Origin: Bdellovibrionales bacterium
GTDB lineage: Bacteria; Bdellovibrionota; Bdellovibrionia; Bdellovibrionales; CAYMLA01
Direction of reading: 5' to 3'
Length of the DNA stretch: 64,000 nucleotides
NCBI GenBank assembly: GCA_965217115.1
Contig: OZ244239.1
Span: 544,001 to 608,000 of the forward strand
Shown: piece by piece, positions 7,839 to 48,875 of the stretch
Layout: each line of letters begins with the position of its first letter
Position numbering within the stretch: position 1 is the stretch's first letter
The notes under the pieces: model-generated
Told to the model about the DNA's origin: nothing
Databases searched by the model: none
Seen by the model: only the letters and a program-made list of their open reading frames with translations
Program-made: the position numbers and the translations under genes

Positions 7839-9371
7839 GTGGTTATGATTTTTCGCTTATTTCTTACAGGTTTCATGGCATTTACGATGCACGCAAATGC
7901 AGCAGAGTACCTTGTTAAATACAAAGACACGGACAGTGGCACTCTGAAAATTGCCCTACAAAAATTGGACAGTTTACAAATCCTCGATACTCACGCTAGG
8001 GGGAGACTCCTAAAAGTGGATATTGATAGAAGCGAAGAGGCCGCGACTTTAATTTCAATTACAAAGAGGGCCGAGGTTGAGTACGTTGTCCCTAACTTTA
8101 AACTCCACGCTTTTCGCGCACCTATTCATATTCAAGCACTAAAAAAACAATGGGCCAATGATAAGGTCAATGCCTCAACTGCTTGGACATTAGCTGGCAA
8201 TAAGGGTTCTAAAGACGTTATCGTCGCCGTTATAGATACTGGTGTTGATTACAACCACGAGTCTTTAAGAACTAACATGCTTCCGGGCTACGATTTCCGT
8301 GACAATGATGACGACCCAATGGATGAAACCAGCTCTCGCAACCCAGGCCATGGAACACATTGTTCTGGCTCCGTGGGGGGCACGGGTGATGTTGACGGAG
8401 GGATTCAAGGTTTGTCTCCCCTCGTTTCAATTCTGCCCATTCGCTTTCTCGGATCTGATGGCTCTGGAGATCTTATGAATGGAATCAAGTCCATTGATTA
8501 TGCCATTCAAAAAGGCGCCCATATTATTTCTGCTAGCTGGGGTGCTCCTGTTAGTCGTTCAGATGCCAAGGCTCTTATTGAAGCCGTGCAACGAGCCGAT
8601 GACGCTGGAGTTATTTTTATCGCTGCTGCCGCCAATGAAGGCAAAAACAACGATTCAAGGGATATTTTTCCGGCCAATTCAGGAACTCCTAATATGATTG
8701 CAGTGGCTGCTTCTAATAAAGATGACAACAAGCCCAGCTGGTCTAACTTCGGTTTATCTTCTGTTGATATTTCAGCACCAGGCCACAATATCTTAAGCAC
8801 ACTACCAAAAAATAAGTATGGTAATCTTTCAGGGACTTCCATGGCGACTCCTCTTCTTGCAGGACTCGTTGCATTGCTTAAAGCACAGAACAGAGATCTT
8901 ACAGGCCTTCAAGTCAAAGCGCTTATGCAGAGCACAGCTAAGCAAATAGACATAAAAATCGCCTGTAACTGTCGTGTGGATGCTGGGGCAGCGATGAAAG
9001 CACTCGTTGAAGAGAAGATGATTGTTGTTCCTGCTGCGACAACAGTAGAAGTGAACGGAACTCAGAAGTTTGAAGCTCTTAACGGAGTTGGCCCTTTTAA
9101 GTTTTCGGTTGCTGATACTGCTGTTGCCACTATCTCAGCAGATGGTGTTTTAACTGCAAAAGCAGATGGAGAAACACAGGTTACGATCACTGATGCCAAC
9201 AATGTAAAAGCCCAATCACTTAAAATTCGAGTGGGCAAGAAAGACTCTGGCGACGGCGGCGGCGGCGGTGGTGGTGGTGGTGGTGGCGCCGGTCAATGTC
9301 CTCTGCCAAACCCCGCACAGTGTGAGCAAATCTGCAAACTTATACCTTCATTGCCGTGGTGTAAAAAGTAA
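7839..9371 (+). CDS. Secreted S8 subtilisin-like serine protease with Ig-like domain and Gly/Cys-rich tail
   Basis: Catalytic triad VIDTG / GHGTH / GTSMA; signal peptide. Confidence 0.93.
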   Translation: MVMIFRLFLTGFMAFTMHANAAEYLVKYKDTDSGTLKIALQKLDSLQILDTHARGRLLKVDIDRSEEAATLISITKRAEVEYVVPNFKLHAFRAPIHIQALKKQWANDKVNASTAWTLAGNKGSKDVIVAVIDTGVDYNHESLRTNMLPGYDFRDNDDDPMDETSSRNPGHGTHCSGSVGGTGDVDGGIQGLSPLVSILPIRFLGSDGSGDLMNGIKSIDYAIQKGAHIISASWGAPVSRSDAKALIEAVQRADDAGVIFIAAAANEGKNNDSRDIFPANSGTPNMIAVAASNKDDNKPSWSNFGLSSVDISAPGHNILSTLPKNKYGNLSGTSMATPLLAGLVALLKAQNRDLTGLQVKALMQSTAKQIDIKIACNCRVDAGAAMKALVEEKMIVVPAATTVEVNGTQKFEALNGVGPFKFSVADTAVATISADGVLTAKADGETQVTITDANNVKAQSLKIRVGKKDSGDGGGGGGGGGGGAGQCPLPNPAQCEQICKLIPSLPWCKK

Positions 9372-9388: not shown

Positions 9389-9426
9389 AAAAAAAAAGGG
9401 TCTCTAAAAATGGAGACCCTTTTTTT
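9389..9426. terminator. Bidirectional intrinsic terminator
   Basis: A-tract, GGGTCTC...GAGACCC stem, T-tract between convergent genes. Confidence 0.85.
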
Positions 9427-9467: not shown

Positions 9468-11624
9468 CTACATTCTTTCCACAGTCTCAATACCAATCAG
9501 CTCAAGGCCCTTAGACAAAACTTTCCCAACACTCTGAATTAATGCTCCACGGGTGTGCTTCAAAGCCTCAGATTTCGCTTTTAGAACTGAACACTGTTTA
9601 TACATACGGCTGTAATCCTTTGATAGGCCATATAAATAAATACACAAAAGCTGAGGCTCATAGCGTTCGCCCGCCTTCTTCGCCGTGTCTTCAAATAACA
9701 TAAGCTTGCGTAAAACTAAACTTTCACTCTCATCTACCAAGAGAGACCAATCGATCAAACCTTTATTGATCTCTCCTAAGTCACGCAAAATAGAACGGGT
9801 TCGTGCATAGGCGTACATCATATAAGGCCCTGTATTGCCTGTTTGCGCTGTCCACTCATTCAAGTCAAAAACAATGTTTTTGTTATTATCCTGATTGAGC
9901 ATTCCATATTTAATCGTAGCGACTGCAATTTTATGGGCCGTGTTTGTAATTTCTTTTTCTGACCACTTCTCTTCTGATTTGCCATTCTCATACTTACACA
10001 AAAAATCTTCTCTAATTTTCTTTAACAAGAGAGCCTTTAATTCAGAAAACAAGATGATGTTTCCTTTGCGTGAACTCATCTTACCATCGGGACGTTCCAC
10101 CATGCCATAAGACAAATGATAACAATCCTTGGCTTTTTCATACCCCATCAACTCAAGAGCTTTAAACGCCTGTTGAAAATGCAATGACTGTGCGCTGTCC
10201 ACAACATAGACAGATTTGTCCACTTTAAATTTATCAAACTTCATCTGCGCTAACGCAATATCCTTTGTCGAGTAAAGCCCCGTGCCATTGGACTTTAACA
10301 AGAGAAAAAAGGGAAGTTTGTAAGCACTCAGATCTGCGCCGATAGCTCCTTCGGATTTAACAAGAACTCCCTTCTTATAGTAATCCATAACTATCTTCTT
10401 GCCTTGGTCCCCCACATCCGATTCATAAAAATCATGGGTAAAACAAACATCCAACCAGCTATAGATTTGTTTAAATTCATCCAAAGACCACTGCCGTGTT
10501 CTCTTCCAAAGAGCCACCGTTTCTGGGTCACCAGATTCCAGGGCTTTTAATGTGTCACCCACCCCTTTTTCACGTCTTTTCATCTCTTCTAAAACACTCA
10601 CCCCATCCTCTAAGGCCCCTTGGATTTTTAAAACTTCAGAAATTGGCTGCCCTTCCTGAGTTCCTTGGGGAAAAACATAGATTTTATTCTTGTCTTCACC
10701 TAAAGCTAGCTCCTTCTGGCTGCAAATCAATCCTTCGCTAAAAACACCCTTCTTCTCAGTTTTCAATACCTCTCGCCCAGCAAAACGTTCACCCACGGGA
10801 ACATAGGCAACGACATCGGCAATCTTAAAACCGACTCCTCCACAAACCACTGTCTTTTCAAGGGAAGATTCACCAAAAGTTGAAACTGTTACAAGCTGCC
10901 ACTTTTCATTTTGTGGATGCTTCTTTATTTTTTTCACACAAGCCGTCATCACCCCTGGAAATGGAGCTTGTGTCAGTAAAGTAAAGTCCATCATTTCATT
11001 GGCCTTTACATACAACTCTCCGAGAAACTCTCCCCTTTTATGCTTAGGAACATCTCCTTTAAAATATTCTTTGTAGAACCACAAACACTTGGCCACATGG
11101 GTTCCCACATCGCCAAAGTAATTCACAGGCAAGACATCATACCCCCCCCAAGCACAAATGCGAGAAATAGCATCCCCTAGGGCCACGTTGCGCATATGAC
11201 CCACATGAAAAGCCTTATGGGTATTGGGTTGTGAATACTCCACCATCACTTTTTGTTTTTGACTCGATCTATTGCCTAAATACGAGCCTTCTAAAATATC
11301 ATTTATTAAATTCCCCGCAAGGTGTGTCCTATCAATAACAAAATTTAAGTAAGGACCTGCGGCAATGACCTGAGCTATTGCATCCAGACAACCCACCTCT
11401 TTACCCATCTCTTCAGCTAGGCTCTTAGCAATTTGAGGAGGCCCTTTGCGCAATATTTTAGCCAGTGCAAAACAAGGGAAAGCGATATCTCCCATGCTGG
11501 CATCTTTTGGCACTTCTAAAAGATGACGAATCTTCTGTCGATCAAAATCATCAGATTTCAAATCAGGTGTTAAAGATAAAATTTTCTGACTAACTAAATC
11601 AGCTACCTGTAAAAAGTAATTCAT
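9468..11624 (-). CDS. argS: Arginine--tRNA ligase with an inserted tRNA-binding OB-fold domain
   Basis: EYSQPNTHKAFHVGHMRN (HIGH region), KMSSRKG, GNTGPYMMYAYAR, C-terminal ERM; about 115 extra aa. Confidence 0.95.
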   Translation of the reverse strand: MNYFLQVADLVSQKILSLTPDLKSDDFDRQKIRHLLEVPKDASMGDIAFPCFALAKILRKGPPQIAKSLAEEMGKEVGCLDAIAQVIAAGPYLNFVIDRTHLAGNLINDILEGSYLGNRSSQKQKVMVEYSQPNTHKAFHVGHMRNVALGDAISRICAWGGYDVLPVNYFGDVGTHVAKCLWFYKEYFKGDVPKHKRGEFLGELYVKANEMMDFTLLTQAPFPGVMTACVKKIKKHPQNEKWQLVTVSTFGESSLEKTVVCGGVGFKIADVVAYVPVGERFAGREVLKTEKKGVFSEGLICSQKELALGEDKNKIYVFPQGTQEGQPISEVLKIQGALEDGVSVLEEMKRREKGVGDTLKALESGDPETVALWKRTRQWSLDEFKQIYSWLDVCFTHDFYESDVGDQGKKIVMDYYKKGVLVKSEGAIGADLSAYKLPFFLLLKSNGTGLYSTKDIALAQMKFDKFKVDKSVYVVDSAQSLHFQQAFKALELMGYEKAKDCYHLSYGMVERPDGKMSSRKGNIILFSELKALLLKKIREDFLCKYENGKSEEKWSEKEITNTAHKIAVATIKYGMLNQDNNKNIVFDLNEWTAQTGNTGPYMMYAYARTRSILRDLGEINKGLIDWSLLVDESESLVLRKLMLFEDTAKKAGERYEPQLLCIYLYGLSKDYSRMYKQCSVLKAKSEALKHTRGALIQSVGKVLSKGLELIGIETVERM

Positions 11625-11717
11625 AACGCCTCAAGTATAACTGTGAAAACCTCTTTTTATCAAAAAAATAATCGAAGTCACCGAGAATCCATCTCGATGA
11701 TATTTTTTAGCATTGGT

Positions 11718-12416: not shown

Positions 12417-12485
12417 TAAGTGTGCTGCGCGTCAAGCCGTGAAAAATGTATTTCTATTCCGAGAATAAGGCTATCAATAACTCCT

Positions 12486-13226
12486 ATGAAACTTCAAAAA
12501 CTCACCGCTCTTGCCTTTTTTCTTATTTTATCCAATGTAACTATGGCTATGGCTATGGCCCTAGAAAACATTCCTCTCACATCTTCATCTGGTTGGCTTG
12601 AAGTTAAATATGATAACCTCCCTGCAAATAAAATTCATTTTGACTCCCAAGCTGCTTCCCACAAAACGCTCACTATGGATATTGATCGTTCTGCCAGTCC
12701 ACTTATTTTTCCTTTCTCCCAGGAGAGATCCATCCAGCAAATTGTGGTCACAGCCAAGGTTCACGGTCATCTAAAAATTTCTGACAAAAAAATACAAGGC
12801 TCTAAAGGGGCTGATGACTTTGTCTTTCGTCTTGGGTTTGTTAGACCTGGAAAAAAGACGCTCTCTCTCTGGCAAAAACCCTTCGCCTCCAAGTGGGTTA
12901 CGCAACTCTTTAACTTAGCTCCTAAAGGCTCTGGCATTGATAGTATCCTATTTTTGAGTGTCCCCAGCACCTCTCAACTCACAGGAAAAAAACGCACTCA
13001 CCCCGCAAGTGACCTTATACAAGAAATATTTCTCAAGCCCGTCAGTAAAAATGGCTCCATTAATATCCATTACACCTTTCCTAAGCCTATCCCCACCCTC
13101 GCCCTCTGGTTGAGTAGTGATGGGGACGACACAAAATCCAAGTATCAAATTCAAATATCAAAAATAACTATCAACCCCCATCTTAAAAAAAAGTTTCACC
13201 CCACGAGTAAGAATAAAAATCCATGA
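12486..13226 (+). CDS. Hypothetical exported protein (possibly DUF3047-like)
   Basis: Signal peptide; C-terminal LWLSSDGDDT. Confidence 0.65.
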   Translation: MKLQKLTALAFFLILSNVTMAMAMALENIPLTSSSGWLEVKYDNLPANKIHFDSQAASHKTLTMDIDRSASPLIFPFSQERSIQQIVVTAKVHGHLKISDKKIQGSKGADDFVFRLGFVRPGKKTLSLWQKPFASKWVTQLFNLAPKGSGIDSILFLSVPSTSQLTGKKRTHPASDLIQEIFLKPVSKNGSINIHYTFPKPIPTLALWLSSDGDDTKSKYQIQISKITINPHLKKKFHPTSKNKNP

Positions 13227-13876
13227 CCAAAATGGAACGCGTCTCTATTATTGAGAAACGATTACAGAAGTTCTATCCCGCCCCACCTATACCTCTAGAT
13301 CACAAAGACTCTTACACCCTGCTCATTGCTGTCCTGCTCTCGGCCCGATGCACGGATGTGCGAGTCAATAAAATCACCCCCACTTTATTTAAAATGGCCG
13401 ACACTCCTGAAAAAATGATTCGCCATTCTATCGAGGAAATAAGAGAGATCATCCGCCCCTGTGGACTCTCTCCCATGAAAGCAAAGGCTATTTACAATTT
13501 ATCCCATATTCTAATCGATGAACATAAGGGACTCGTTCCTGCAAATTTTGTGGACTTAGAAAAGCTCCCTGGCGTGGGTCATAAAACAGCTTCCGTGGTT
13601 ATGTCCCAAGCATTTGGCCACCCTGCTTTTGCTGTCGACACCCACGTCCATCGTTTAGCCCAACGCTGGAAGCTCACCAACGGCAAGAATGTCGTACAAA
13701 CTGAAAAAGATCTGAAAAGCCTCTTCCCAAAAGAGAGTTGGACCAGGCTTCATTTACAAATTATCTATTACGCCCGTGAACACTGCCAGGCAAGGGCTTG
13801 TTATGGTCTCGTCTGCCCTATTTGCAAAGAGCTTTTTCCTAAACGAAAAACTCCCCTTAAAACTTTAAACCCATAA
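13223..13876 (+). CDS. nth: Endonuclease III
   Basis: LLIAVLLSA, HhH LPGVGHKTA, VDTHVHR, C-terminal four Cys. Confidence 0.95.
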   Translation: MTKMERVSIIEKRLQKFYPAPPIPLDHKDSYTLLIAVLLSARCTDVRVNKITPTLFKMADTPEKMIRHSIEEIREIIRPCGLSPMKAKAIYNLSHILIDEHKGLVPANFVDLEKLPGVGHKTASVVMSQAFGHPAFAVDTHVHRLAQRWKLTNGKNVVQTEKDLKSLFPKESWTRLHLQIIYYAREHCQARACYGLVCPICKELFPKRKTPLKTLNP

Positions 13877-48798: not shown

Positions 48799-48875
48799 GC
48801 AGCCGTAGTTCAACTGGATAGAGCACCAGACTTCGAATCTGGGGGTTGCAGGTTCGAGTCCTGCCGGCTGCACCA
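48799..48875 (+). tRNA. tRNA-Arg (TCG)
   Basis: GCAGCCG/CGGCTGC acceptor stem, CCAGA-CTTCGAA-TCTGG anticodon arm, GGTTCGAGTCC, CCA. Confidence 0.96.

Follow-up and report, generated by a model that had tools for sequence, protein, structure and literature searches.

Aminoacyl-tRNA synthetases that carry an appended oligonucleotide/oligosaccharide-binding (OB) fold of the tRNA_bind family are known. In MetRS and TyrRS the OB fusions are terminal, and in the beta chain of phenylalanyl-tRNA synthetase (PheRS) the OB domain B2 is nested in another domain, B1, with its two ends close together. We describe here an arginyl-tRNA synthetase (ArgRS) with a domain of this family inside its catalytic domain. 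It is encoded by argS in a stretch of 64,000 nucleotides, called the window below, from a Bdellovibrionales bacterium (contig OZ244239.1, positions 544,001 to 608,000). What is new relative to the known fusions is ArgRS as the host enzyme and the internal site. The 2024 table of AARS Online gives the EMAP/OB fold for AsxRS, AspRS, AsnRS, LysRS-II, MetRS, PheRS beta and TyrRS and leaves ArgRS unlisted, and Juru et al. (2024, PMC11286949) name fusions only for MetRS, PheRS and TyrRS. No description of an ArgRS with a tRNA_bind domain was found in the full-text literature, with subscription journals and the AARS Online web pages outside the search; one Leishmania paper that holds both 'ArgRS' and 'tRNA_bind' was set aside, the two terms belonging to different proteins. 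The first-pass annotation, an earlier reading of the window from its letters, had stated that it knew of no described ArgRS with this insertion, and none appeared in the sources searched. The variant appears never to have been studied, and curators may have seen the architecture, which is visible in precomputed Pfam annotation.

Set against canonical ArgRS of known structure (yeast 1F7U/1BS2, E. coli 4OBY/5B63, T. thermophilus 1IQ0), the window's enzyme has every domain and motif in common and differs in carrying about 125 extra residues where the canonical enzymes have a loop of a few residues. The gene occupies 9468..11624 on the minus strand (stop included) and encodes 718 aa in an open and continuous frame, and its translation contains all the strings that had been quoted for a 718-aa ArgRS in the first pass. 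NCBIfam assigned the protein to argS (TIGR00456) at 395.1 bits against a cut-off of 261.65, and Pfam found a split tRNA-synt_1d domain (PF00750, 177.1 bits) together with Arg_tRNA_synt_N (PF03485) and DALR_1 (PF05746). All canonical ArgRS parts are retained on the minus strand: the N-terminal Arg_tRNA_synt_N or Add-1 domain at residues 8-96 (11337..11603; 50.3 bits, cut-off 21.5), the HIGH signature HVGH at residues 140-143 (11196..11207), invariant in 51/51 family members, the MSSRKG loop at residues 516-521 (10062..10079) with M516, S518, R519 and G521 invariant, and the DALR_1 anticodon-binding domain at residues 602-718 (9471..9821; 94.8 bits). We take MSSRKG to be the ArgRS counterpart of KMSKS. 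The genome is a single contig of 2.17 Mb (99.43% complete), in which a six-frame search found one ArgRS locus, the only other match reaching 22 bits; outside argS, tRNA_bind occurs in it only in PheT. Judged from sequence, argS encodes the cell's single housekeeping arginyl-tRNA synthetase.

The inserted module and its linkers, delimited by alignment to insert-lacking ArgRS, span residues 210-340 (10605..10997, minus strand), of which about 125 residues (about 212-338) are the insert itself. Its OB-fold core, the Pfam tRNA_bind match, covers residues 226-326 (10647..10949, minus strand) and contains the invariant G293-x-x-S296-x-G298 and the E305 of an ELG motif. The match to PF01588 scored 29.0 bits against a gathering cut-off of 27 (E 1.1e-6), which is marginal for a single sequence. 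In NCBIfam, residues 220-334 matched positions 41-156 of pheT_bact with an E value of 2.6e-15, and the YtpR model matched with an E value of 4e-9 and 36.6 bits, far under the family cut-off of 100. The first-pass annotation had placed a PheT-B2/Trbp111-family OB fold inside the ArgRS catalytic domain at 10620-10967 (minus strand), which corresponds to residues 220-335. That placement holds: the module lies between HVGH (140-143) and MSSRKG (516-521), and the domain scan that had been proposed puts tRNA_bind above the Pfam cut-off, nested in the split tRNA-synt_1d.

The point of insertion was located by alignment. In the six-frame search of the whole genome, the TIGR00456 model was broken exactly between its positions 202 and 203 at the insert. 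Against yeast ArgRS (1bs2), residues 31-209 aligned to 53-228 and residues 340-718 to 234-607, leaving about 130 residues in the window's enzyme where the yeast enzyme has 5. In the structural model the insertion site is predicted to be a short surface loop of the helical sub-domain after the second Rossmann-fold strand; from the order of strands in the model we infer that the insertion follows strand 2 and not the strand 3/4 crossover. The site, at about 229-233 of yeast ArgRS, presumably falls within the region that Cavarelli et al. reportedly named Ins-1, and no equivalence to connective peptide 1 (CP1) is claimed. CP1 of LeuRS, IleRS and ValRS is likewise a whole globular domain within a class I Rossmann fold; unlike CP1, the ArgRS insert has a different fold and no apparent hydrolytic site.

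The AlphaFold2 model of the whole protein, built from a 51-sequence alignment, reached a predicted local distance difference test (pLDDT) value of 93.0 and a predicted template-modelling (pTM) score of 0.87, with an all-beta segment at residues 226-320 and a pLDDT of 93-95 in the 10-residue blocks that cover both linkers. Modelled alone from 29 sequences, the OB domain reached a pLDDT of 94.7 and forms a five-stranded OB barrel that superposes on solved tRNA_bind members. When the whole model was searched with Foldseek, the top 17 listed matches were all ArgRS (1f7u_A, E 3.9e-35, target-normalised TM-score, TMt, 0.84), and a separate match of about 130-156 columns went to PheRS beta chains. 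The domain alone matched B2 of PheRS beta with query-normalised TM-scores (TMq) of 0.71-0.77, a root-mean-square deviation (rmsd) of about 2 A for most chains and 24-26% identity, and YtpR 3bu2 with TMq 0.70, an rmsd of 2.1 A and 28% identity; Trbp111, MetRS-C, EMAPII and CsaA scored about 0.5. A YtpR model in complex with GatB (9a77) was among the fold matches. On these sequence matches and predicted models, which go well past anything expected by chance, the insert belongs to the tRNA_bind family and has the OB fold of its PheT-B2/YtpR branch, and the domain is held, in the model, in a confidently predicted fixed position in the enzyme.

The closest described system in both sequence and fold is therefore B2 of PheRS beta (PDB 6oz5, 4p71, 1pys), the best match of the ArgRS insert on either measure. 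B2 and the insert have a G-x-x-S-x-G-M-x-C-S-x-x-E-L-G hairpin in common, whereas the loop that precedes it reads D-K-x-G in the insert and K-[IL]-R-G in PheT B2; the host of the insert is a class I ArgRS, in contrast to the class II PheRS beta. YtpR (3bu2) has the same OB fold but is a free-standing protein of about 200 aa. Trbp111, YgjH, the MetRS C-terminal domain, EMAPII and Arc1p belong to the same Pfam family and provide the precedent for a synthetase-fused OB fold that improves tRNA capture; fusions of the Trbp111 class are terminal and often dimeric, whereas the ArgRS insert is internal.

The architecture is not private to this genome. Database relatives were counted as clusters at 90% identity, and at least 120 clusters carry it. 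The best 120 clusters are all 667-763 aa long; a precomputed PF01588 flag is present on 111 of them, and in our own alignment 125-148 residues occupy the insertion site in 120/120. Their sources include metagenome-assembled genomes (MAGs) of Bdellovibrionales/Bdellovibrionota, Planctomycetota and Acidobacteriota, as well as the cultured Sulfidibacter corallicola, Acanthopleuribacter pedis and 'Planctomycetes bacterium Poly30', and complete genomes of the cultured S. corallicola and Saltatorellus ferox encode the insert-bearing form. Among 80 loci on contigs from one genome per species, the site was 121-138 residues long in 36 and 3-18 in 42, two loci being too short to score.

Genomes of three phyla were sampled with a full-length profile search in which continuous matches were counted, the samples as such giving no proof of absence elsewhere. 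An insert-bearing ArgRS was found in 4/301 Bdellovibrionota genomes (this genome included), in 6/201 Planctomycetota genomes (including the genome on which the sample was centred) and in 1/201 Acidobacteriota genomes, where the central genome was the sole match. The remaining 297/301 Bdellovibrionota genomes gave no continuous match, and their listed matches lie in frames of about 580-650 aa, in keeping with the earlier statement that ordinary ArgRS lacks the domain. The form is rare in the sampled phyla, no description of it was found in the literature searched, and no fewer than 120 clusters share it. Three ArgRS types at least can be told apart in Bdellovibrionota: the insert-bearing type (4/301); a close insert-lacking type, with E about 1e-126 to 1e-147 for the C-terminal half and up to 490 bits across some 365 positions for the best of these halves; and a distant type with E values of about 1e-50 to 1e-90. 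Because the types are mixed inside single families, one of which (f3) holds all three, the distribution suggests repeated replacement of argS in Bdellovibrionota. Two database contigs look mis-binned. The ArgRS of a 'Sulfitobacter sp.' contig (L064) and that of a Halobacteriovorax MAG are almost the same (branches of 0.04), and a 'Nanoarchaeota archaeon' contig (L062) encodes an ArgRS of bacterial type that lacks the insert, has 46% identity to the window's enzyme and resembles those of SAR324/deltaproteobacterial loci.

A tree of 83 ArgRS was inferred with the insert columns removed (IQ-TREE quick search, LG+G4, 574 columns) and rooted on five distant Bdellovibrionota ArgRS, with branch support from the Shimodaira-Hasegawa-like approximate likelihood ratio test (SH-aLRT). 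Partial loci (L024, L038, L039, L052, L062, L067, L069), duplicates (L086, L087) and near-duplicates (L007, L028, L030, L031, L033, L046, L047, L051, L054) were excluded. The 30 insert-bearing rows fell on one side of a branch with SH-aLRT 100, and the 53 insert-lacking ArgRS of the tree set have a loop of 5-13 residues at the site. One change accounts for the trait: the insert was acquired once. The neighbouring clades, from Bdellovibrionota, SAR324/Lambdaproteobacteria-labelled MAGs and Nannocystaceae, lack the insert. Within the insert-bearing clade the phyla are interleaved; the window's ArgRS pairs weakly (SH-aLRT 81) with a Planctomycetaceae sequence, and six other Bdellovibrionota-labelled insert-bearers form a separate group apart from it. 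We consider it close to certain that this architecture is genuine and defines an ArgRS subfamily. Since the clade is rare and patchy over three phyla, the insert marks that subfamily and not an organismal lineage, and the subfamily has probably moved between phyla. The suggestion of a lineage marker in the first-pass annotation gives way here to a monophyletic ArgRS subfamily scattered over at least three phyla (4/301, 6/201 and 1/201 sampled genomes).

The insert is kept under purifying selection throughout the subfamily. Mean column identity was 46% in the insert (29 sequences) versus 51% for whole proteins (51 sequences), and the ratio of nonsynonymous to synonymous substitution rates (dN/dS) of the insert ranged from 0.04 to 0.26. 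The trustworthy pair is L006/L007 (0.26 in the insert, 0.11 in the rest of the protein) and, less so, L031/L033 (0.09 and 0.03); eight pairs had a dS of 1 or higher in one partition or more, and two pairs were not computable. G293, S296, G298 and E305 are invariant in 120/120 relatives. A basic residue is kept at R/K284 in 120/120, at R/K280 in 110/120 and at K/R291 in 106/120, and M299 is present in 106/120, with L at this position in the window's own protein. When residues were mapped via E. coli YgjH and the S-x-G-M anchor, S296 and M299 came out as the equivalents of Trbp111 S82 and M85.

We looked for the source of the module with a profile of 29 inserts, which gave 9111 matches at E <= 0.001 among 1.84 billion representatives, nine of them at E <= 1e-30. 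After the ArgRS relatives, it is ordinary PheT proteins that match the profile, at the B2 position (about 41-155) and with 92-107 bits. A recent copy of the genome's own PheT B2 was rejected as the origin: that domain is just 30% identical to the insert over 91 residues, and the relationship between insert and PheT B2 is for this reason an old one. A word-indexed search for free-standing relatives among proteins of 66-242 aa gave one protein, P0121 (223 aa, 85 bits), which was set aside because it reads like the N-terminal part of a PheT. Four PheRS beta proteins of 910-916 aa (P0127, P0130, P0132 and P0145) were also recovered. Three of the four have two tRNA_bind (B2-type) domains in tandem regions, and P0132 has one Pfam tRNA_bind stretch and two profile stretches. 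One copy in these double-B2 PheT proteins scores up to 134.6 bits against the insert profile, compared with 92-107 for ordinary PheT B2, and the ArgRS insert could have been donated by a lineage near theirs.

Some insert-bearing relatives are themselves elaborated. Four ArgRS of 781-898 aa (P0138, P0152, P0226 and P0248) have a long Lys/Glu/Ala-rich low-complexity stretch inside the OB insert, after E-L-G, and some relatives in this size range have Lys-rich N-terminal stretches in a style like that of eukaryotic synthetase appendages. Among the appendages with which eukaryotic synthetases bind tRNA, Lys-rich stretches are typical. Another insert-bearing ArgRS of 870 aa (P0144) has about 170 extra N-terminal residues without a Pfam match.

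What might the insert do? By analogy with related domains, its most likely function, which we put forward tentatively and at somewhat less than even chances, is that of an auxiliary tRNA-binding module acting in cis. A complete OB fold of the PheT-B2/YtpR type, inserted once into a short surface loop of ArgRS, would help to capture or hold tRNA-Arg by its acceptor arm or 3' end. Such help would improve the Michaelis constant (Km), an effect reported for EMAPII/Trbp-type domains in fusions with MetRS and other synthetases. Even the activation of arginine by ArgRS requires tRNA, and better tRNA capture would for that reason help both the activation and the transfer step. According to Juru et al. 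(2024, PMC11286949), fusion of the OB class to synthetases lowers the Km for tRNA, and a Trbp111-tRNA co-crystal with binding assays places the contact at the 3' terminal C75-A76 only and not at the elbow, through K33, R75, I77, F78, S82 and M85, with S82 and M85 holding the terminal A76. The idea of an extra tRNA-elbow-binding module, put forward in the first pass, follows an outdated view of Trbp111, which according to this source binds the 3' CA end (PMC11286949). The conservation of S296 and M299, the basic residues kept at R/K284 and K/R291, and the Lys/Glu/Ala-rich stretch nested in the insert of some 781-898-aa relatives speak for an auxiliary tRNA-binding module.

A number of observations weigh against it. 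Of the six Trbp111 contact residues, only the equivalents of S82 and M85 are clearly retained in the insert, those of K33, R75, I77 and F78 appearing not to be conserved (the stretch matched to R75/I77/F78 reads x-D-K-x), and the window's own ArgRS carries L at the M85 position. The loop of the insert reads D-K-x-G and not K-[ILM]-[RF]-G, and both position 292 and the K33 equivalent are variable. The residue mapping to Trbp111 is itself weak, with an hhalign probability of 14% to YgjH and a one-residue gap in the loop in BLAST. The S-x-G-M hairpin and E-L-G are present in the insert, and the hairpin is likewise conserved in PheT B2. The closest relatives of the insert are PheRS B2 domains, and in Goldgur's Thermus complex of 1997 B2 reportedly makes no contact with tRNA-Phe. 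A passage of a PheRS review of 2010 gives anticodon binding to B8 and no role to B2. No matching insert-bearing ArgRS was found in 692/703 sampled genomes of the three phyla, which apparently manage without the insert. Finally, the four tRNA-Arg genes of the genome are canonical (77 nt, ordinary D-loop) and give no sign of a substrate that would need an extra domain, so that an unusual tRNA-Arg was rejected as the reason for the insert. One of the four, tRNA-Arg(TCG), lies in the window at 48799-48875 on the plus strand (genome 592799-592875) and is a canonical 77 nt. The inserts are acidic, with a median isoelectric point (pI) of 5.2 and net charges of -8 to +2. This was considered as an argument against RNA binding and dropped, as YgjH (pI 5.0) and eight PheT B2 domains (pI 5.1-7.9) are similar; the charge is neutral with respect to either outcome.

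The strongest alternative, which we regard as unlikely but well short of negligible, is that the OB domain was captured once as a structural passenger that packs against and stabilises the catalytic body, or shields its surface, and touches no tRNA, like B2 of PheRS. The nearest relatives of the insert are PheT B2 domains, which are not known to contact tRNA, and three of five key Trbp111 side chains are not conserved. The confident prediction of both linkers and domain suggests a docked rather than a swinging module. In 8/9 computable pairs the insert has a dN/dS 1.4-3 times as high as the remainder of the protein, and the great majority of relatives function without the insert. A passenger is harder to reconcile with dN/dS values of 0.04-0.26 and four invariant positions across three phyla, which amount to real constraint. 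The invariant S-x-G-M hairpin and the basic residues at 280, 284 and 291 also map to the loop region with which Trbp111 contacts RNA; the hairpin is a weak argument here, because the same hairpin is conserved in PheT B2.

A more specific proposal, again by analogy and rather improbable in our estimation, is that the inserted OB domain gives ArgRS a further place, beside the active site, where the single-stranded 3' CCA end can dock, by way of a pocket at the conserved S296/M299 hairpin used in the manner in which Trbp111 takes A76. In this arrangement tRNA-Arg, or newly charged Arg-tRNA-Arg, would have its acceptor end held outside the catalytic pocket, and the OB domain would act as a site of holding or hand-off, comparable in function to CP1 where it takes the 3' end in editing synthetases. 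If true, such a site would bear on the tRNA-dependent activation of arginine, on release of the product or on how the ester bond is protected, and it would be the first internal 3'-end-binding module of the Trbp class in a class I catalytic domain.

Still less probable is a protein-binding or oligomerisation module, by which ArgRS would associate with itself or with a partner such as another synthetase, an elongation factor or, in the manner of CsaA, unfolded polypeptides. The same OB superfamily includes, according to PMC11286949, domains that form dimers (Trbp111, MetRS-C) and chaperones (CsaA), and the YtpR-GatB complex model (9a77) is among the fold matches. The fold of the insert is nearer, however, to the monomeric PheT-B2/YtpR domains (TM 0.70-0.77) than to dimeric Trbp111/CsaA (about 0.5), and no partner gene is evident beside argS, which appears monocistronic. 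A two-copy complex prediction of the 131-residue domain scored 0.00 against a mark of 0.42, which is no evidence either way. An artefact, be it a chimeric assembly, a wrongly called frame or a mobile element of the intein kind, is all but excluded because the architecture recurs in 120/120 top clusters from many independent assemblies, complete genomes of cultured species among them, while the frame is continuous in a single-contig genome, the insert bears no intein signature and scores only as tRNA_bind, and it co-evolves with its host protein as one clade.

Around the gene, a promoter-like site (TTGATA, 18 nt, TATACT; 10/12) lies just upstream of argS at 11634..11663 on the minus strand. It is a consensus match only, and shuffled sequence yields as many sites of this kind as the region does. 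Between the convergent stops of argS and a subtilase gene, a 16-bp hairpin between A and T runs (9391..9426) is terminator-like on both strands. Read from these signals, argS appears monocistronic, between promoter-like site and hairpin. An antisense open reading frame (ORF) of 81 aa within the insert had no family match. The neighbours of argS encode a subtilase, a uridine kinase and an endonuclease III-type glycosylase. The subtilase (7839-9371, plus strand), convergent with argS, is a secreted protein with Peptidase_S8 and Big_2 domains that ends in a 13-glycine run and a Cys-rich tail. A 268-aa ORF at 12420-13226 on the plus strand has a signal-peptide-like N-terminus and no Pfam match, and its end overlaps by 4 bases the start of the endonuclease III-type gene (13223-13876).

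Few enzymes are as well charted as the synthetases, and here an OB domain of this class lies inside a class I catalytic domain. Only a new role for the OB domain, should one emerge, would make this change a major concept. With its members scattered patchily over three phyla, the subfamily probably reflects horizontal transfer of argS, an essential gene of translation, which matters where ArgRS serves as a phylogenetic marker. The insert-bearing form is the sole ArgRS of the cultured and tractable Sulfidibacter corallicola and Saltatorellus ferox, and its insert-lacking sister enzymes are ready-made designs for a deletion. The subfamily is in this sense a natural experiment on the effect that an added tRNA-end-binding module would have on an enzyme that needs tRNA for the activation of its amino acid.

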